Shown: one piece after another, positions 14,136 through 44,181 of the stretch
How positions within the stretch are numbered: the first letter of the stretch is position 1
Layout of the letters: the number at the start of each line of letters is the position of its first letter
Virus record (IMG/VR): IMGVR_UViG_3300035698_017588
Coordinates: 1-64,000 of that record
Origin: a virus
DNA length: 64,000 nt
Direction: 5' to 3' (one strand)
Notes under the pieces: generated by a model
Told to the model about the DNA's origin: nothing
Seen by the model: only the letters and a program-made list of their open reading frames with translations
Databases searched by the model: none
Position numbers and translations under genes: made by a program

Positions 14136-15272
14136 TTACGTATTAATCTCTCGAACTTTCATGGTAGTGTAATTGATCTCGCAAGTAACGGTCTTGTGTT
14201 TAGGACCATTCCGATTCTTAGCAATAAAGAAACGAAAACGTGGAGGACTTGATTCACGTTCCTCGGGAGTCTGGTTGATGGTGATAATATAGTCCATTGA
14301 GAACTGCTTGGCATAAGACTCTGCCGCGTCCTTCAACGTAATAGCTTCGCCAGTAGATCCCGCTGACCTATTCGTCTGCGTAGCCGTGAATACTAACACA
14401 TTTTCATTTTTAGCAAAGCCCCGAACCTCATTAGCAACAGCCTTTTGCCGACTGTAATCATCACGATTAGCGTACTTATTCCGACTCACCATCAAATCGA
14501 GATAATCGATAATAACAACGTCCGGATACCAACCATGAGACCGACGAAGGTTATCTAGCAAGTGATACAAATGGTCAACACTACATTGCTCAGGCGGCAA
14601 TTCAGAAATAAAAATCTTGCCATCATAAGTCGTCTTCAACGAATTAATCTTGCTCGTTATTTCATCCTGGCGACTGACTAATTTGTCCATCGGGATATCT
14701 TCACCAAGAACGCCAAGACACCGCATCGAAGTCTTAATATAATCAAGCTCAAACGTCACCAACAAAACATCCTGCCCAACCCTACCACCAGGACCCGGCC
14801 CCTGCCAAGACGTAATGGCATTATTACACAGAACAATCGAATTATGGCTAACCAAACCAGAAGTATAATACCAATGCGGATCAGATATGGTAATATCATA
14901 AAAATCTTCCTCGGGACCATCATCAATATAATAGCCACCAGGAGAATAGTAATTTCCATGCCGTAGATGTTCACAATGGAAACCAACTAAAACATCATTA
15001 GTACAATCTATTTGATCAGCACGGGCTGCCGTTAATTTTCCATCCCTTATGATCTGTAAAACATGCCCAGGATCACAAGAAAATTTATCAGCTCGAAGAG
15101 AGAAAATCTTAGAAGGCCCGCGTTTCATGAACGCAAAATCAAGAACTTTAGTCCAGCCAGATGGGGTCAACACATGGTGAATAGCATCAGGATTCTCTTC
15201 TAAATCATCTTTAATGATTGATAATGGAACTTCTTGAAGTCTATTCGTCGGTTTAATTGATCTAATTTTCAT
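14136..15272 (-). CDS. gp41/DnaB-like helicase C-terminal part fused to the C-fragment of a split intein
   Basis: Intein residues ending FYDITISDPHWYYTSGLVSHN|S; then VTFEL, IIDYLDLM (Walker B), TATQTNR, IAKNRNG. Confidence 0.9.
   Translation of the reverse strand: MKIRSIKPTNRLQEVPLSIIKDDLEENPDAIHHVLTPSGWTKVLDFAFMKRGPSKIFSLRADKFSCDPGHVLQIIRDGKLTAARADQIDCTNDVLVGFHCEHLRHGNYYSPGGYYIDDGPEEDFYDITISDPHWYYTSGLVSHNSIVLCNNAITSWQGPGPGGRVGQDVLLVTFELDYIKTSMRCLGVLGEDIPMDKLVSRQDEITSKINSLKTTYDGKIFISELPPEQCSVDHLYHLLDNLRRSHGWYPDVVIIDYLDLMVSRNKYANRDDYSRQKAVANEVRGFAKNENVLVFTATQTNRSAGSTGEAITLKDAAESYAKQFSMDYIITINQTPEERESSPPRFRFFIAKNRNGPKHKTVTCEINYTTMKVREINT
14841..15272 (-). mobile_element. split intein C-fragment (144 aa) of gp41/DnaB
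   Basis: Contains VLTPSGW, block B-like SCDPGH, block F YDITI..H and block G HN. Confidence 0.85.
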
Positions 15273-15448
15273 CTGTTTTCAAATTCCATGTGATTTTCAA
15301 TGGCCGATTGTACAGTTTCACCCACAGAAACCACTTGCGGCTTTCGTTTTTCATGAGGACGAAAACCTTCTGCTTTATATTCATGCTGAAGACGCAAATC
15401 AAGCCATTTGGCGTCCTCTAAATCAAGTTCGATTATTATTTTCGACAT
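15269..15448 (-). CDS. small hypothetical protein (59 aa)
   Basis: Read by hand: MSKIIIELDLEDAKWLDLRLQHEY...MEFENR*; ATGA overlap with the helicase-C start; below the ORF track cut-off. Confidence 0.5.
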   Translation of the reverse strand: MSKIIIELDLEDAKWLDLRLQHEYKAEGFRPHEKRKPQVVSVGETVQSAIENHMEFENR

Positions 15449-16370
15449 CTTCTATAATCCCTTTGAGTCTTAAAAAAGCTTCCTTTGGTGTTTTCATAAT
15501 CTCTGATTCCCAGAACACGTGAACAACATATCCAAGAGCTTCGAGATCGTTTTTCCTAATCTCATCTTTTTCTTTTTTGTTCATTCGTCCGTCATTACAA
15601 ACAAAACGATCTGAATGCCAATAATCACCATAAACCTCTATTACAATATTATCAAATAAACAAAAATCTACACAATACTTGTCTATCAGAAACTCGAATT
15701 CAAAATCGAATTCGAAAGAATGCAACATGCCCCACATAGCAAGTTCTGGTTTAGTGACAATTTTAGATTGTAGAGATCTAGTTCTGGCAGACACTCTTTT
15801 AGTCTTATCAGTATGACCTCTTCCATGAAAACCATTATTAGAACCACATGACTTTTTACTTAATTCCTTTTTTATTTCCGATTTTGGTTTGCCGGTTCTT
15901 TTTTGAATCGATTTAATAGAAGCCGGGTTTCTAGCCCCAGAATTACATTCTCTCAACAACTTTTTCAATTCATCGGTAGAATACCTCTCAGCAATCCCTT
16001 TCTGACGAGAGCTTAAAGCGATAATAGCATCATCAACTTCCATCCCCTGATATAGATAGAACTCTATACATGATGGATTTCGGAGTCTGTTGATGCTACT
16101 ACATTCTCTAGCAAAACAAGAATAAGCAAAATCCCTTCTGTGAAGGTTGACATCTCGGCCGCAACCACAACAACATTTTGGGACTTGAAAATAATCTTTC
16201 AAATAATCCCCAAAATCCCCACCACGCTCAGAATTGCGTCTCTTAATACCATGTACATCATGTAAGTGTGTCATGAGCTTATTCGGATGAGATCCGTCAC
16301 ACTTCCAATCGCATATCTGACAATTCCAAATCCCAGGAATCATCGACAGATGGTAAATCTCCGATCTCAT
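15423..16370 (-). CDS. free-standing homing endonuclease (Zn finger + NUMOD3-like + Vsr/DUF559 PD-(D/E)xK)
   Basis: CQIC..H..H, CCCGCG, GSNNGFHGRGHT, TKPE...VDF...IEVYGDYWH...WESEI; AT-rich; start uncertain. Confidence 0.85.
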   Translation of the reverse strand: MRSEIYHLSMIPGIWNCQICDWKCDGSHPNKLMTHLHDVHGIKRRNSERGGDFGDYLKDYFQVPKCCCGCGRDVNLHRRDFAYSCFARECSSINRLRNPSCIEFYLYQGMEVDDAIIALSSRQKGIAERYSTDELKKLLRECNSGARNPASIKSIQKRTGKPKSEIKKELSKKSCGSNNGFHGRGHTDKTKRVSARTRSLQSKIVTKPELAMWGMLHSFEFDFEFEFLIDKYCVDFCLFDNIVIEVYGDYWHSDRFVCNDGRMNKKEKDEIRKNDLEALGYVVHVFWESEIMKTPKEAFLRLKGIIEDVENNNRT

Positions 16371-17157
16371 CCTCTTCGGTAAGATCTTTAACTTTAACTG
16401 CTCCGCGTGCAGTTTGAACTTTTCTAAATCCTGCAAGTTGTCGAACCGTACCATCTTCCATCTCCAATTCATAAAGCTGTGAATTTTCTTTATTTACAAT
16501 CGAAGTTGATAAAGAATGGCATTTACCAACATTTGTTCCCGCAAGCCAACAAACAACCTCTTTAGGTCCTGGACCGCCATTATTGAGGAATTTATCAAGA
16601 CTTCGGAAACCAGAGGTACGATGCTCAATAGCAGACGGGCTGAACAATAATTCATAATTATCCAGAAGCCACAAACCCTGGACCTGCAGATCAGTAATCC
16701 GATTAGCCTCTTCGACGATCTTCTCGATCTCATCAAAATCCCCGTTCTGATAAGCAAGCATCGCCTCGTCTGAATAGATCAAGCCGAAAGCCCTCTTCCG
16801 AGCCCATTCGACCATCTTCTCTTTCAGAATGGGAACATCACGCGGGTTCGATTTCTGATCGATAAGTTCCAGAACCGATTCATATGGGTCATCCTCAGTC
16901 ATATGCTGAAGGATGAAATCACGAAGCAGGCCCCGAGTCGGGACGATTTGATGCTTCTCAATGTGATTAAGAATGATAGCGATTACGTATCGTGCTTCAA
17001 CCGCTTCGAAAAGATCTGGCGTTAAGAATCGTCCGATCGAAAGAAATAGATCCGGGTGATCAAGGGCAAGGGGGATCAGAGCCTTCTCAACGTACTTGCC
17101 AAATTCGCTCTCAGCCTCGTTATTTTGAGTGAGAAATTTGGAAGTATCTTCGTACAT
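16297..17157 (-). CDS. gp41/DnaB-like helicase N-terminal part fused to the N-fragment of a split intein
   Basis: SGFRSLDKFLNNGG...WLAGTNVGK|CHSLST; splicing would restore Walker A GTNVGKS. Confidence 0.9.
   Translation of the reverse strand: MYEDTSKFLTQNNEAESEFGKYVEKALIPLALDHPDLFLSIGRFLTPDLFEAVEARYVIAIILNHIEKHQIVPTRGLLRDFILQHMTEDDPYESVLELIDQKSNPRDVPILKEKMVEWARKRAFGLIYSDEAMLAYQNGDFDEIEKIVEEANRITDLQVQGLWLLDNYELLFSPSAIEHRTSGFRSLDKFLNNGGPGPKEVVCWLAGTNVGKCHSLSTSIVNKENSQLYELEMEDGTVRQLAGFRKVQTARGAVKVKDLTEEDEIGDLPSVDDSWDLELSDMRLEV
16300..16521 (-). mobile_element. split intein N-fragment (74 aa) of gp41/DnaB
   Basis: Starts with Cys directly after Walker A Lys; block A CHSLSTSIV. Confidence 0.8.
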
Positions 17158-17158
17158 A

Positions 17159-17515
17159 TTATGGTCCTGAAGTGCCGCTCGTACCTGATGTAAGATCAAC
17201 GCAATGCGTAGCGATCCTATTTTGAATTGCAGCTAGTTGATTTTGATGATACTGTTCTGCCAACGCAAGAGCATCACAGATCTGAATAAATTCGCATTCT
17301 TCGAAAGTGATAATTGCCCCATTTGTCAGACTCCGACGCTCCCCATAATGGGGAGCATGCGTTGGCAAATTGGGCCTAATTAGAATGGTATAAACCCACC
17401 CATTATTTCCACGGGTAACACCCGCAATCGTATGAGCTTCTAAGAATCCGACTGAGGCGGATTCTCGGAGGTAGACGGTTGTTCCTCGTTCGTAGAGGGG
17501 AGCGTCGTAGGGCAT
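17159..17515 (-). CDS. hypothetical protein
   Basis: 118-aa ORF overlapping the RecA tail, 1 nt from the helicase start. Confidence 0.55.
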   Translation of the reverse strand: MPYDAPLYERGTTVYLRESASVGFLEAHTIAGVTRGNNGWVYTILIRPNLPTHAPHYGERRSLTNGAIITFEECEFIQICDALALAEQYHQNQLAAIQNRIATHCVDLTSGTSGTSGP

Positions 17516-19656
17516 GAGTCTGTTCCAGTGATTACATGATTGTAAATTCTCTGAAATAGATTTGGGTCTGTCGCCAATGTAGCAGCAGAAGCCGCCATAC
17601 CATTGCCAAGAGATTCCCCATCATATTTGATATGACTCCCAGAGACAGTAACAATTTTCTTATCTTTCGCTACCGTCAACAAGCTGGAATATGGGTCGAC
17701 ACCATAAATTGGGTATTCAGGCAGACCAAACGTGATATTGAATTCAGCGACAGTAAAAGGCGGTGCGATCTTATTCTTCTTGAACGTCACCTTAGTAGTA
17801 TTACCAACAACAGTATCACCAACCTTAAAAGAACCCGTCCGACGAATGTCCATTCGAATAGACGAATAGAATTTCAAGGCTCGACCACCAGGAGTTGTCT
17901 CAGGAGAGTTATGCACAACAACACCAACTGGATTACCACCAGCCATGTAATTATGATTCCCTTCTACAGAAATATCATACTTTCCCTTCTGCTTCATTTG
18001 TCGTTTGCTAGCTGGTCGAATATCAACAATCTCAACACCGCAAGATCTGAAAGCCCTTTTTCGACTAAGATTTAATGTTTTGTAAAACCCGCGACGACAA
18101 ACAGGTAATTTTCTGTCCATACATTCTGGGACAAAGCAAGCGATCTTAGAAGCAATATTTTCGCTGATGTCCACGTCAAATGTGACTCTGCCACCACGAG
18201 ACATGTAGTGGAATAAGCCTAATTCATCAAGTGCTCGACTAATTTGATCAAGCTTCTCACCATCACCAGCGAATCGTTTGATAGATAATTGATAACGTTT
18301 ACGTTCGTAAACAGCATCATCCATCATCCAAATAGCAAAACCAAGCCATGAAAAATTGTCAAGCAAAATCATTGGGTCGCGATTTGGATAATCACGCTTA
18401 ACTTCAGCAAATTCAGGATACTCTATTGAAGAATAAAAGACGCCAGAATTACATTTATAATCAGCCATCTTAAGACCAGCAGCAGAAAGAATTTCAGCCT
18501 TCCAATTCATATAATGAGTATCAATATTATCTCGAATCTTCAGAGCAGCTCCTAATCTCTTCTTATTTTTGGAGATATGAGAGTCACCGGACAACACTCC
18601 AGTAAGGAATTGACCAAGAGTGCCATTTGGGTGACCGTCTTCATCAAACACAAAACAATCTTGTTTTGTGGTAAGATGATCACCCACACTCAAAGAATCC
18701 ATTTGAACGAATTCATTATCACACAATACTTCGTGACTTGGAGTCACAGTGATTTGCATGGTACCGTTTTTCGTACCAGGACCACGCAATGAAACGTGAA
18801 GATAGTCGTCAGATATTTCTACATCACCATTGTGGTGCCAGTCGACGATTTTCTTTGGTTCGAATTCCTTGGTCTCGATGTTGTAAGACCATACCTCACC
18901 TTCAACCTTTTCATCATAAACTTGACGAATCGGCAATACTCTGCCATCTACAAATGGGATTAAAGTGTCGGCATGAAGGCAGCCGAACATGACGCCGATC
19001 TTCTCTCGGATCTGATTAACACACAATAGAGTGCATTTACTGGCTGAAACAGGGCCATTGATTTTAGCAAAGGCACGACTGTTCATTCGAGCATTAGCAC
19101 CAATTTGGTTGTTACCCTCAAGAGTGCCTTCGATTTCGTCTTTCGTGATCATGGCAGCGATAGAGTCGATGATCACCAATTCTACCTTGCCGGATTTGAC
19201 AAGCAATTCGACAATATCGTACGCTTGCTCACCATTACTCGGCTGAGAGAAGATCAATTCTTCGACGTTCAAACCGATCGCCGAAGCCCAAGTGGGATCA
19301 AAAGCGTGCTCGACGTCGACAAAAGCCACACGTCCTGGTCGTTGACCAGTCACTTTGCCAGAGTCGTCTTTGACGTCAAAAAGAGTGTTCTGAAATGCTG
19401 CACCGATTTTGAGGCACGTGGTAGTCTTTCCGCTCGACTCAGGCCCATAGATCTCGATGATCCTGCCTCTCGGGATTCCGCCGCATCCGATCGCCTCGTC
19501 GATACCGACGACACCGGTTGGAACGGAATCTACTGGGACAATAGCGTTGTCTCCAGCGAATCGTACGGCTTCGACACCATACTTAGATATGAAGTGTGCT
19601 CTCAGCTCAGTCAGATCTTCAATTGCTGTGCTCTTCGCTTTAACTTTCGCCATCAT
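17440..19656 (-). CDS. recA: RecA recombinase containing an intein
   Basis: GGIPRGRIIEIYGPESSGKTT, IDSIAA, NQIREKIGVMFG|...|SPETTPGGRALKFYSSIR. Confidence 0.97.
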   Translation of the reverse strand: MMAKVKAKSTAIEDLTELRAHFISKYGVEAVRFAGDNAIVPVDSVPTGVVGIDEAIGCGGIPRGRIIEIYGPESSGKTTTCLKIGAAFQNTLFDVKDDSGKVTGQRPGRVAFVDVEHAFDPTWASAIGLNVEELIFSQPSNGEQAYDIVELLVKSGKVELVIIDSIAAMITKDEIEGTLEGNNQIGANARMNSRAFAKINGPVSASKCTLLCVNQIREKIGVMFGCLHADTLIPFVDGRVLPIRQVYDEKVEGEVWSYNIETKEFEPKKIVDWHHNGDVEISDDYLHVSLRGPGTKNGTMQITVTPSHEVLCDNEFVQMDSLSVGDHLTTKQDCFVFDEDGHPNGTLGQFLTGVLSGDSHISKNKKRLGAALKIRDNIDTHYMNWKAEILSAAGLKMADYKCNSGVFYSSIEYPEFAEVKRDYPNRDPMILLDNFSWLGFAIWMMDDAVYERKRYQLSIKRFAGDGEKLDQISRALDELGLFHYMSRGGRVTFDVDISENIASKIACFVPECMDRKLPVCRRGFYKTLNLSRKRAFRSCGVEIVDIRPASKRQMKQKGKYDISVEGNHNYMAGGNPVGVVVHNSPETTPGGRALKFYSSIRMDIRRTGSFKVGDTVVGNTTKVTFKKNKIAPPFTVAEFNITFGLPEYPIYGVDPYSSLLTVAKDKKIVTVSGSHIKYDGESLGNGMAASAATLATDPNLFQRIYNHVITGTDSCPTTLPSTNEEQPSTSENPPQSDS
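17908..18981 (-). mobile_element. RecA intein with LAGLIDADG endonuclease (358 aa)
   Basis: CLHADT start, VTPSH block B, GVLSGDS and WMMDDA motifs, YDISVEGNHNY...VHN end. Confidence 0.95.
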
Positions 19657-19891
19657 TCTCACCTTGGTTATCAGAATTAATAGCCGGTTTCACTTCCGTA
19701 GTGAACTGGCCTACTACCTTTACGGCAGATGGTTTAACACGTAGAATACGGGCACCGCGTGACAACACAAGGAATTCGTCGTGGCTAGATACAACAGACC
19801 ATCGGCCACTTGAATCAAACCCACCTTTCTGCCCAAGAACACCAGTGGTATCAATAATAATTACAATGTCGAAAGCACGGATATTCTTCAT
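19640..19891 (-). CDS. hypothetical protein
   Basis: 83-aa ORF overlapping the recA start. Confidence 0.5.
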   Translation of the reverse strand: MKNIRAFDIVIIIDTTGVLGQKGGFDSSGRWSVVSSHDEFLVLSRGARILRVKPSAVKVVGQFTTEVKPAINSDNQGENDGES

Positions 19892-42695: not shown

Positions 42696-44181
42696 TTGCC
42701 ATAAATGCGGAAAATCATCAGAAAAAACCGTTCCCAATTTTTACAAACAACTTAAAATCTACGGTTGTTCATATTGCACAGATTGTGCTATAAAGATAAG
42801 GAATTCTAATAACTCAAAAAGAGAAAAAGAAAGAAATAAATCGAAGATAAAGAATAAAGATCTTGTTGGGGCAATATGTGAGAAATGCGGGCAAACCAGA
42901 TCGATTCAATATAGATTAGCAAAACAATCTAAACTATGCTACTCTTGTGCGGCCAAAGAATCACATAGATCACATCGCGATTCATATTTAATAGGACAAG
43001 ACAAACTAAAAAACAATAATAATTTCAAAAAACTAGTATCAAATGGTATAATGGCGGCTTCAACGCCAGAACAAAGATCAGAGAACGCAAGAAAATCTGC
43101 TGAATATTGGAATAATCCAGAAATTAAAGAATGCATCTTAAAAAGACGCATGGAGCCCGAATACCGCAAAACCATGAGGGAAATTTGGGATAGACCGGGA
43201 TATAGAAAAGCGGCCTCAAAAAGAGCCAAAGAACACTTTAAAAAGTTGTGGCAAAACGAAGAATTCCGAAACAAAATGGCAATAGCAAGAAGCAAAATGC
43301 CTAGGGAATCAAGCCAACAAAAGATTCTTTCGAATATACTCGATGATCTTAATATAGAACATTTCAAGGAATACCCAATAGGACCTTGGTGTTTTGATTC
43401 ATTCATCCCAGAACATAACTTATTAATAGAAGTACAGGGAGAATATTGGCACTCACTACCAAAGGCTATTAGAAACGATAGATCGAAGAGAACATATATT
43501 ACTAATTATACCGACTACGATGTGTTGTATTTATATGAAAGAGACTTTTATTCCAACAACACTGTCCTGAATAAATTATTAAGTAAATTCGGCATATCTT
43601 CTGTAGATGAAAAAAAATTTGATTTTTCAAATGTATCAATAAAAGTAGAAGAAAATAAGACCATTTCAGAATTTTTATATTCATATCATTATCTCGGGAC
43701 AATAACACACAGTAACAATATTTGTTTTTATCTCAATGATGAATTAATAGCGGTTGGGTGTATAGGGCCATGTTCAAGAAATGAAACGCCAAAAAGACAC
43801 GGCTTAACCAACAATGAATGTCGAGAATTAAGAAGATTTTGTATAAAACCTGGATATCATAAGAAAAATTTCGCTAGCTGGTGTTTGAGTAGAATAAGGT
43901 CAGAACACAAAGAATCAAGACCAAAAACAAAAAGAATTTATAGTTTCGCCGATAGCACCATGGGGCACAATGGCACAATCTATAAAGCGGATAACTGGAT
44001 ATATGATGGTGACACTCAGCCATCATATTATTATATCAGTAATAATGGTTGGGTTATGCACAAGAAAAGCCTGTATAATATGGCCATAAAAATGGGTTTA
44101 AAAGAAAAAGAGTATGCAGAATTACATGGATACGCAAAGCAACATACAGATAATAAATCAAGGTTTTATAAAGACATCTGA
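42670..44181 (+). CDS. free-standing endonuclease (Zn fingers + Vsr/DUF559) fused to a Mom-like GNAT domain
   Basis: CHKC/CEKC, FDSFIP...IEVQGEYWH; C-terminal YHYLG...ELRRFC...SFAD...GH.GTIYKADNW.Y.G. Confidence 0.8.
   Translation: MSAKRKRFNCHKCGKSSEKTVPNFYKQLKIYGCSYCTDCAIKIRNSNNSKREKERNKSKIKNKDLVGAICEKCGQTRSIQYRLAKQSKLCYSCAAKESHRSHRDSYLIGQDKLKNNNNFKKLVSNGIMAASTPEQRSENARKSAEYWNNPEIKECILKRRMEPEYRKTMREIWDRPGYRKAASKRAKEHFKKLWQNEEFRNKMAIARSKMPRESSQQKILSNILDDLNIEHFKEYPIGPWCFDSFIPEHNLLIEVQGEYWHSLPKAIRNDRSKRTYITNYTDYDVLYLYERDFYSNNTVLNKLLSKFGISSVDEKKFDFSNVSIKVEENKTISEFLYSYHYLGTITHSNNICFYLNDELIAVGCIGPCSRNETPKRHGLTNNECRELRRFCIKPGYHKKNFASWCLSRIRSEHKESRPKTKRIYSFADSTMGHNGTIYKADNWIYDGDTQPSYYYISNNGWVMHKKSLYNMAIKMGLKEKEYAELHGYAKQHTDNKSRFYKDI

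Follow-up and report, generated by a model that had tools for sequence, protein, structure and literature searches.

The closest described relatives of the system reported here are the "fractured genes" of phages, in which a gp41 helicase, NrdA/J, IMPDH, or DnaE gene is split by a split intein and a free-standing GIY-YIG or Vsr-like endonuclease gene lies between the two halves (Dassa et al. 2009, PMC2677866). In canonical split inteins the N-terminal intein fragment (IntN) has about 100–130 amino acids (aa) and includes block B, and the C-terminal fragment (IntC) has about 35–50 aa (PMC13014065). Atypical split inteins are broken at site S1, after strand β2, in VidaL and PolB16 (IntN of 15–16 aa) or at site S2, after helix α1, in AceL-TerL and GOS-TerL (IntN of 25–37 aa) (PMC13014065). 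Here we describe a broken DnaB/gp41-type helicase gene in a 64,000-nucleotide stretch of viral DNA (positions 1 to 64,000 of IMG/VR record IMGVR_UViG_3300035698_017588, hereafter the window). We posit, with a probability of roughly 0.8, that it is a fractured gene in which a class 1 intein inserted in the P-loop (GK↓S, the arrow marking the insertion point) has been split by a free-standing homing endonuclease gene of the DUF559/Vsr-like type, and that the break falls within an accessory lobe of the intein.

The overall arrangement is already known, because a free-standing Vsr-like endonuclease between split-intein halves constitutes a fractured gene (PMC2677866). The locus has in common with fractured genes a split phage replication gene, intein halves that flank a free-standing Vsr-like/DUF559 endonuclease gene in one locus, alleles that lack the endonuclease (L001 and L090 among our comparison loci, which were fetched from IMG/VR and JGI metagenomes; gp41-7 among the fractured genes), opposite charges at the split strands, and a proposed origin in which an endonuclease invades an intein gene. 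It differs from fractured genes in its insertion point, the GK↓S of the P-loop, and in the upstream RNA hairpin, a frequent but non-defining feature there, with or without a late-promoter box, that is not above chance here. The initial annotation of the locus, made from the DNA letters, inferred a distinct split-intein architecture; this is partly supported, as the intein itself is a variant with a modeled lobe at the break, but the arrangement as a whole is known, and the endonuclease gene in the gap had been overlooked.

Compared with known split inteins, the fragments combine features of two kinds. In gp41-1, gp41-8, and NrdJ-1, which are canonical, block B belongs to an IntN of ~100–130 aa and IntC has ~35–50 aa (PMC13014065), whereas here block B is in IntC. 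As in the atypical VidaL, PolB16, AceL-TerL, GOS-TerL, and the consensus Cat intein, the break is N-terminal to block B and IntC is a nearly complete Hint domain (PMC13014065, PMC11766414). Unlike these atypical split inteins, however, IntN has 64–87 aa rather than 15–37 aa, both fragments contribute to a lobe of roughly 55–70 residues at the split site, and they bear complementary charge clusters, as canonical pairs do. In sequence the intein is only 21–23% identical to VidaL, gp41-1, and NrdJ-1. By the lengths of its predicted fragments the family lies outside both known size classes of natural split inteins, canonical and atypical, and in the literature searched we did not find a description of an atypical-site split with an IntN of 64–87 aa, an IntC of 125–144 aa, and a charge-complementary lobe across the break.

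Organization of the Broken Helicase Gene

Coordinates are positions in the window, and every gene described here is on the minus strand (-). Within the ATP-binding P-loop, precisely at GTNVGK↓S, the helicase is broken into an N gene and a C gene that are 1,024 nucleotides (nt) apart, in agreement with the initial annotation, which had placed two genes about 1 kb apart at this Walker A motif. The N fragment is encoded by an open reading frame (ORF) at 16297–17199, which has 300 aa when read from a TTG; a database call (P0021, 286 aa) begins at the ATG at 17157, which is the likely true start, and the ESM Atlas record of the fragment begins at residue 15 of the 300-aa ORF. The C fragment ORF (14136–15272) has 378 aa. 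The N-terminal extein (16522–17199) is composed of the N-terminal domain and the first half of the P-loop, ending in GTNVGK, and the C-terminal extein (14136–14840) is composed of Ser+1, which is the invariant S145 of the C fragment, followed by the remaining RecA-like helicase domain (SIVLCNN...; Pfam DnaB_C, E = 3.5e-11). The helicase profile phrog_19 matches residues 15–226 of the N fragment with its positions 145–366 and the C fragment with its positions 367–581; because these ranges adjoin, the exteins abut to the residue, between positions 366 and 367. Many intein-free alleles on other phage contigs have identical flanks and read GTNVGK-SI(V/L)LCNN over the insertion point.

Both helicase fragments and the DUF559 ORF between them fit on one strand in a span of 3.1 kb, and the split helicase is the sole DnaB_C match in the whole record, a 95-kb IMG/VR virus fragment. 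Given that a record of this length is estimated to be only about 27% complete, the source virus is probably a large, uncultured jumbo phage. Near-identical contigs are L002–L005, L010, L081, and L082, and a blastn search with the 3-kb locus against the GenBank phage collection returned no match.

Motifs and Parts of the Two Intein Fragments

IntN is 74 aa long (16300–16521), begins with Cys, and contains block A only; its block-B-like stretch, AGFRK, has an Arg where the block B His would be. IntC comprises residues 1–144 of the C fragment (14841–15272), begins MKIRSIK, and ends SHN, followed by Ser+1 (14838–14840). It carries block B (CDPGH, 15063–15077), block F (DFYDI...PHWYYTS), and block G (SHN↓S), with blocks F–G encoded in 14841–14906. 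The motif content of both fragments is thus as first annotated, from the His-less block-B-like stretch of an IntN with block A only to the MKIRSIK start and the blocks B, F, and G of IntC. Nor is the layout due to chance: about 23 sequence clusters of N fragments (278–306 aa) retain the entire IntN at 55–75% identity, with lengths of 64–87 aa (mean 73 aa), and about 20–30 clusters of C fragments retain an IntC of 125–144 aa.

Cys1, which is residue 227 of the N fragment, is nearly invariant across 23 N fragments, and 20 C fragments share C66, D67, H70, D126, P132, H133, W134, S142, H143, N144, and S145 without exception. The catalytic residues of class 1 inteins (Cys1; C66, D67, H70; D126; H143, N144, S145) are therefore all invariant or nearly so in the family. 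From its predicted nucleophile, its blocks A, B, F, and G, its seamless exteins, and the Hint fold modeled for its relatives, we assign the intein to class 1.

IntN is divisible into three parts. Residues 1–10 (CHSLSTSIVN, 16492–16521) hold block A with the Cys1 nucleophile and correspond to Hint strands β1–β2, which are strands in the AlphaFold2 (AF2) model of a relative. Residues 11–61 (16339–16491) are the predicted IntN share of an accessory β lobe, with 55–75% identity in the family and a predicted local distance difference test (pLDDT) score above 90 in both AF2 models described below. This part consists of a hairpin (YELEMEDG-TVRQLA), the His-less block-B-like loop (GFRK), a second hairpin (VQTARGAVKV), a short helix, and an acidic stretch, and its invariant residues are S14, L19, E20, D23, G24, G31, Q36, T37, R39, G40, L47, and D51. 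Residues 62–74 (SWDLELSDMRLEV, 16300–16338) form a tail encoded by the 5' portion of the endonuclease cassette, which is reached by read-through. The DNA of this tail encodes, in the other frame, the start of the endonuclease zinc finger (IWNCQIC), and the tail has no counterpart in contiguous relatives; its length varies in the family, ending at the first in-frame stop, its sequence diverges in L001, where the endonuclease has been lost, and its pLDDT is low. The last ~13 residues of IntN are read-through of the endonuclease cassette and not intein, and they have to be removed from the module to which the initial annotation had assigned them.

In IntC, residues 1–12 (MKIRSIKPTNRL, 15237–15272) are predicted to form a basic first strand, the final element of the accessory lobe (a 12-residue strand with a pLDDT of ~96 in the model of a relative); M1, I3, I6, and T9 of this head are nearly invariant. 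Residues 13–144 (14841–15236) would make up the canonical Hint fold, beginning with the strand ahead of helix α1 and running to its end, as judged from profile matches and from structure matches obtained with VIA-align (VIA). The IntC of the window, like that of P0002, has an extra ~10–13 residues (EHLRHGNYYSPGG; IntC ~97–111, approximately 14940–14985) just ahead of the long strand leading into block F, at the canonical endonuclease-domain (S0) insertion site; the extra residues may be a small remnant or a loop expansion.

Allele States of the Intein Gene

Three contiguous relatives, P0085 (637 aa), P0096 (645 aa), and P0084 (629 aa), carry the same intein of ~200 aa at the same site and have no endonuclease. 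Split forms exist in several states. The endonuclease is intact in the window, L088, and L091, which have full-length homologs in the same place and gene order; it has decayed to remnants in L083, L089, and L092; and it is nearly wholly deleted in L090 and L001. The N and C genes of the last two are 48 (L090:1927-1977) and 42 nt (L001:3790-3834) apart, and these gaps, as well as the 129-nt gap of L083 (L083:3369-3500), are in the same reading frame on both sides. Comparison of contiguous and split forms places the insertion point of the cassette after ...(S/T)xxD(A/D) and ahead of K/M-x-I-K-S-(I/L)-K. Intact, decayed, and deleted endonucleases together with intein-free alleles are the picture expected of a homing cycle acting on the intein gene, and the endonuclease most likely homes into endonuclease-free copies of that gene. 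Since only a few stop codons would have to be lost for the intein to become continuous again, the three contiguous relatives could be secondary re-fusions and not ancestors.

These alleles also bear on whether the helicase is spliced at all. It might instead be dead, inactivated by the endonuclease insertion, or its halves might associate only non-covalently, as do those of the split NrdA of phage Aeh1; such a rescue of an endonuclease-split gene is on record (PMC3045599), splicing at the present locus is a prediction, and the record covers only 27% of the genome. The break, however, interrupts the P-loop, so that non-covalent association would leave the ATP site unrestored, and the splicing residues are invariant or nearly so over ~20–30 clusters. 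Both helicase fragments are full length and free of frameshifts in eight divergent loci, the split form persists after loss of the endonuclease in L001 and L090, and the 95-kb record contains no other DnaB_C match. We consider a dead or non-spliced helicase highly improbable.

Predicted Fold and Accessory Lobe

Folding was carried out on natural stand-ins, P0096 and P0099, which are 41–48% identical to the pair in the window. P0099 is L001:3574-4224 read through four stop codons (TAA=G, TAG=S), giving IntN, a 15-residue artificial linker, and IntC. MAFFT alignments A6 and A7 were used for folding, and A3 and A4, which had intact helicases mixed in or P0085 as anchor, misaligned IntN and were dropped. 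The AF2 model of P0096 (alignment of 58 family members) has a pLDDT of 86.7, with most of the intein above 85, and that of P0099 has a pLDDT of 90 and a predicted template modeling score (pTM) of 0.81, with low values only in the linker and the IntN tail. A Foldseek search with the full-length model retrieved helicases only, and an intein-only model was hence made; against the PDB this model gave 46 significant matches (E <= 0.001, best E = 3e-8), all of them inteins or Hint-family domains (BIL, hedgehog). VIA, run against 48,161 chains, aligned the model with NrdJ-1 (Z = 19.7, root-mean-square deviation [rmsd] 1.7 Å, 130 residues aligned), gp41-1 (Z = 19.0, rmsd 1.8 Å, 125 of 127 aligned), Npu DnaB (Z = 18.9, rmsd 1.9 Å, 130 aligned), and VidaL (Z = 17.9, rmsd 3.1 Å, 136 aligned).

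Of ~192 intein residues, 125–136 superpose on known inteins and roughly 55–70 are left over, such that the intein is modeled as one complete Hint fold plus an accessory lobe of roughly 55–70 residues. Judging from the aligned counts and the first and last aligned ranges given by VIA, the unsuperposed part is most likely IntN ~11–61 together with IntC 1–12, and the extra module with the split running through it that had been proposed from the sequence is recovered in this form. In the model the lobe consists of a helical turn, strands at 20–26, 31–35, 39–42, and 45–48, a short helix, a strand at 57–61, and the 12-residue strand at 88–99; the lobe alone (model residues 20–99) has no VIA match above Z 3.5. 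Since the three contiguous relatives carry it, the lobe did not arise for the split, and it appears to predate the split, with the reservation that these relatives could be re-fusions.

Using phmmer, single IntC and IntN sequences gave nothing meaningful against PDB sequences, and matches came only with profiles; the IntN profile against the PDB returned mostly coiled-coil noise, and an ESM Atlas search with IntN returned one viral cluster with an uninformative score of 0.75. Recurrent weak matches of IntN to the Pfam LRR_NXF1-5 model were judged spurious.

Position of the Break Relative to the Hint Fold

The split lies upstream of block B. As the block B His is in IntC and the fragment sizes differ (74 and 144 aa; 64–87 and 125–144 aa in the family), this is not a canonical (S0) split intein; the atypical nature of the split had been recognized in the initial annotation, and the long IntN sets it apart from the known atypical ones, which have 15–37 aa (PMC13014065). 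From about IntC residue 13, the IntC profile is colinear with VidaL residues 24–141 (E = 5e-8); its 17th position pairs with Met14 of gp41-1, and colinearity continues to the end of that intein (E = 7e-7). VIA places the IntC chain of the Cat intein (PDB 6dsl_B), an atypical one, on model residues 108–217, and in the model a short helix (104–107) leads straight into the hairpin HVYT/GFQR, the counterpart of LVLS-NTG-YNEV in gp41-1. From this colinearity, the mapping of the Cat intein, and the chain continuity at 104–107, helix α1 and all that comes after it are most likely in IntC. The model indicates that IntN gives the canonical fold only the block-A strands, its first ~10 residues.

We are fairly confident in placing the lobe in the β1/β2-to-α1 region, at or very near S1, with the natural break running through the lobe; this placement of S1 uses the aligned ranges, the HMMER colinearity, and the chain continuity. 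An S2-like register, in which the VQT.RG...DL hairpin and helix of IntN would take the place of canonical β2/α1 and the IntC head would be the extra part, is the less likely of the two. Extra β elements in the N-terminal part of a Hint domain, away from the usual endonuclease-domain site, also occur in the Aes123 PolB1 intein (PDB 9HTH), which has additional strands β4–β5 at S2 and is itself split at the canonical site (PMC13014065); 9HTH matches our model at VIA Z 16.2 and the IntC profile at E = 2.8e-6. Unlike that intein, the insertion here is much larger, with six strands against two, is probably at S1 rather than S2, and has the natural split passing through it.

The Endonuclease Gene and Its Probable Overlap with IntN

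The gene between the intein halves encodes a predicted free-standing homing endonuclease of 306–349 aa, depending on the start (15423–16343, 15423–16454, or 15423–16472). Behind its CxxC...HxxxH zinc finger comes a nuclease core of the DUF559/Vsr-like type (EVYGDYWHSD), which matches Pfam PF04480 (DUF559) with E = 3.5e-8 (33.7 bits; cut-off, 20.6). Candidate starts are the ATG at 16454, which is within IntN and has GGAG upstream, and the ATG at 16343, which is the second conserved Met, 4–5 codons ahead of the CxxC; the longest ORF begins at 16472.

The +1 frame across IntN residues 23–62 (16343–16454 in the window) is open in six of seven divergent loci, being noted in the window and at the equivalent place in L083, L088, L090, L091, and L001. 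Its start is always an ATG that spans the GAT GGN codons for Asp-Gly in the IntN hairpin and lies 7 nt past GGAG/GGAA, and the frame continues into the endonuclease zinc finger. When codons were shuffled synonymously, the frame stayed open in a fraction of only 0.003–0.22 of trials for the six loci with an open frame; for L089, whose frame contains a single stop, 0 of 2000 shuffles were open. Windows of 40 codons with an open +1 frame occur elsewhere in six of the helicase genes (L088 left out) at a frequency of 0–0.19. The +2 frame has 4–6 stops. These patterns suggest that the endonuclease gene probably starts inside IntN in a dual-coding overlap. If the upstream start is used, about 112–158 nt would be read in two frames, which could add to the conservation of IntN.

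This overlap raises the question of whether the long IntN is an artifact, the real IntN being a VidaL-like peptide of ~10–16 aa and the remainder being kept open for the N-terminus of the endonuclease in the +1 frame. The openness of that frame, far above synonymous shuffles or other gene parts, its conserved ATG with GGAG/GGAA upstream, and the overlap of the conserved ELSD tail with the NCQIC of the endonuclease are what such an explanation would predict. However, contiguous relatives without the endonuclease keep the region in the intein frame, and it is intact where the endonuclease has been lost (L001 and L090); conservation tracks the IntN frame, with turn glycines and alternating hydrophobic residues; and both AF2 models fold the region at pLDDT >90, packed with the first IntC strand. 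Given that contiguous and endonuclease-free alleles keep IntN and AF2 folds it confidently, dual coding does not explain IntN away, and we regard the artifact as very unlikely.

Folding of 71 nt upstream of each candidate endonuclease start and upstream of IntC gave z-scores of -0.07 to -0.34, none above chance as an RNA hairpin, and a search for an excess of promoters or terminators found none. A group I intron, or another join at the RNA level, was dropped as a candidate, since the intein motifs of both ORFs are complete and the DNA between them is itself protein-coding.

Is the Accessory Lobe a Duplicated Half-Hint?

The initial annotation proposed that the extra module is a duplicated, non-catalytic half-Hint. 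Stated in terms of our models, the lobe would be a duplicated, catalytically dead block-B half of Hint together with a copy of the first IntC strand, and the break would fall at the S0-equivalent site of this pseudo-half. Such a pair would dock in the manner of canonical split inteins but complete its catalytic fold in the manner of atypical ones. The order of elements agrees: long strand, strand, loop, strand, strand, short helix, strand, and long strand follow one another in model residues 20–61 plus 88–99 and again in 126–174 plus 182–196, that is, in the block-B half and the first canonical IntC strand. The block-B His position holds an Arg, and in one lineage a His, and the two sides of the split have opposite charges. 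Several sequence comparisons point the same way. MAFFT, unprompted, put IntN onto the block-B region of IntC (in an alignment later dropped for misaligning IntN); hhalign paired IntN 34–75 with IntC 66–103 (P = 6.5e-4, probability 28%); the Pfam Intein_splicing model places IntN 9–53 of L090 (RGSHE lineage) on its positions 42–92 (E = 0.015, 15.5 bits), and the IntC block-B region matches positions 37–92 of the same model; and the IntN profile matches NrdJ-1 residues 61–107 (E = 1.1).

All of these similarities are nonetheless sub-threshold (the 28% probability; the E of 0.015, from one sequence only; the E of 1.1). A gapless self-scan of the profile prefers IntN 16–23 against block F (P = 0.02) and does not recover the block-B pairing, β-hairpins with a DG turn are generic, and the lobe alone matches known structures only at Z <= 3.5. 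In addition, a lobe that predates the split did not evolve as a docking handle. We therefore hold the half-Hint origin as tentative and lean slightly against it: the similarities and the element order agree with the annotated claim, and their marginal scores leave it short of established.

Predicted Assembly and Splicing

Averaged over the family, the charge is -5.8 for IntN from residue 39 onward and +3.0 for IntC residues 1–12. In canonical pairs the strands on the two sides of the break are likewise oppositely charged (Dassa et al. 2009, PMC2677866), a pattern that has been tied to "capture and collapse" assembly (PMC13014065). A docking role of the lobe is plausible from these charges, and the docking handle of the initial annotation can be kept in this sense; as a module evolved for the split it cannot, since contiguous relatives have it.

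In the scheme that we favor, that of a class 1 intein fractured within its accessory lobe, two polypeptides would be made, HelN-IntN and IntC-HelC, where HelN and HelC are the helicase portions. IntN would supply block A and most of the lobe, and IntC the last long strand of the lobe and blocks B, F, and G. The acidic IntN lobe would capture the basic first strand of IntC, the block-A strands would then insert into the nearly complete Hint domain of IntC, and class 1 splicing would proceed through the Cys1 thioester, attack by Ser+1, and cyclization of Asn144. The product would be a helicase of ~446–460 aa with GTNVGK-SIVLCNN restored.

Several considerations weigh against this scheme. The record is only ~27% complete, and a second, intact helicase could sit elsewhere in the genome. 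The fold was modeled on relatives that are 41–48% identical and not on the IntN and IntC of the window, and the single-chain model of the split form contains the artificial 15-residue read-through linker. Splicing, docking, and homing are themselves what we infer from conserved residues, the fold, and the allele series.

A more elaborate scheme adds the half-Hint origin to these elements: an intein of three lobes, with a dead block-B half-Hint and a duplicate first IntC strand inserted at S1, a break at the canonical position of the pseudo-half, docking by a canonical-type charge zipper, and an endonuclease gene that starts inside the handle in the +1 frame. As a whole we consider this combination possible but doubtful.

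Neighboring Genes and Related Sequences

Between the endonuclease gene and the C fragment lies an ORF of 59 aa (15269–15448), a questionable gene, whose start overlaps the end of the endonuclease gene and whose stop overlaps the start of IntC (ATGA). It has no Pfam or PHROG match, and no counterpart was found among ORFs of at least 45 aa in the six divergent loci with DNA upstream of the C fragment; ORFs of near-identical loci were listed only at 80 aa or more. A search for paralogs of the endonuclease in the phage's own record gave only one marginal match (43003–43479).

Directly upstream of the helicase is recA (17440–19662; Pfam RecA, E = 1.5e-84), which holds a full contiguous intein with a LAGLIDADG endonuclease domain, from GVMFG↓CLHADT to VVHN↓SPETT, adjoining the split one. 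Among related sequences, P0089 has an IntC of 58 aa that starts after block B and represents either a genuine split of the canonical type or a gene call that was cut short. P0076 (763 aa, from the representative search) is a C fragment of the same family with a second large intein downstream (KMMP↓CVLPDT ... VVHN↓CDYVVS) that has a homing-endonuclease-like middle, so the same helicase can host two inteins. Four proteins of 2,000–2,650 aa (P0079, P0081, P0092, and P0095) contain 5–10 repeats that match IntC ~6–84 (E = 1e-12 to 1e-4) and are presumably Hint-like or β-hairpin modules.

Implications

Split inteins are widely used as protein-ligation tools, and the present pair is a possible new one. 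If it does splice, high-affinity capture of the canonical type could be combined with atypical topology, and the pair would probably be orthogonal to existing ones. Were the three-lobe scheme true, the family would represent a distinct class of split intein in which endonuclease and handle are tied by dual coding. The contiguous, endonuclease-bearing, and endonuclease-free alleles of one intein offer a natural series on the fracture of a gene and on the persistence or healing of that fracture.

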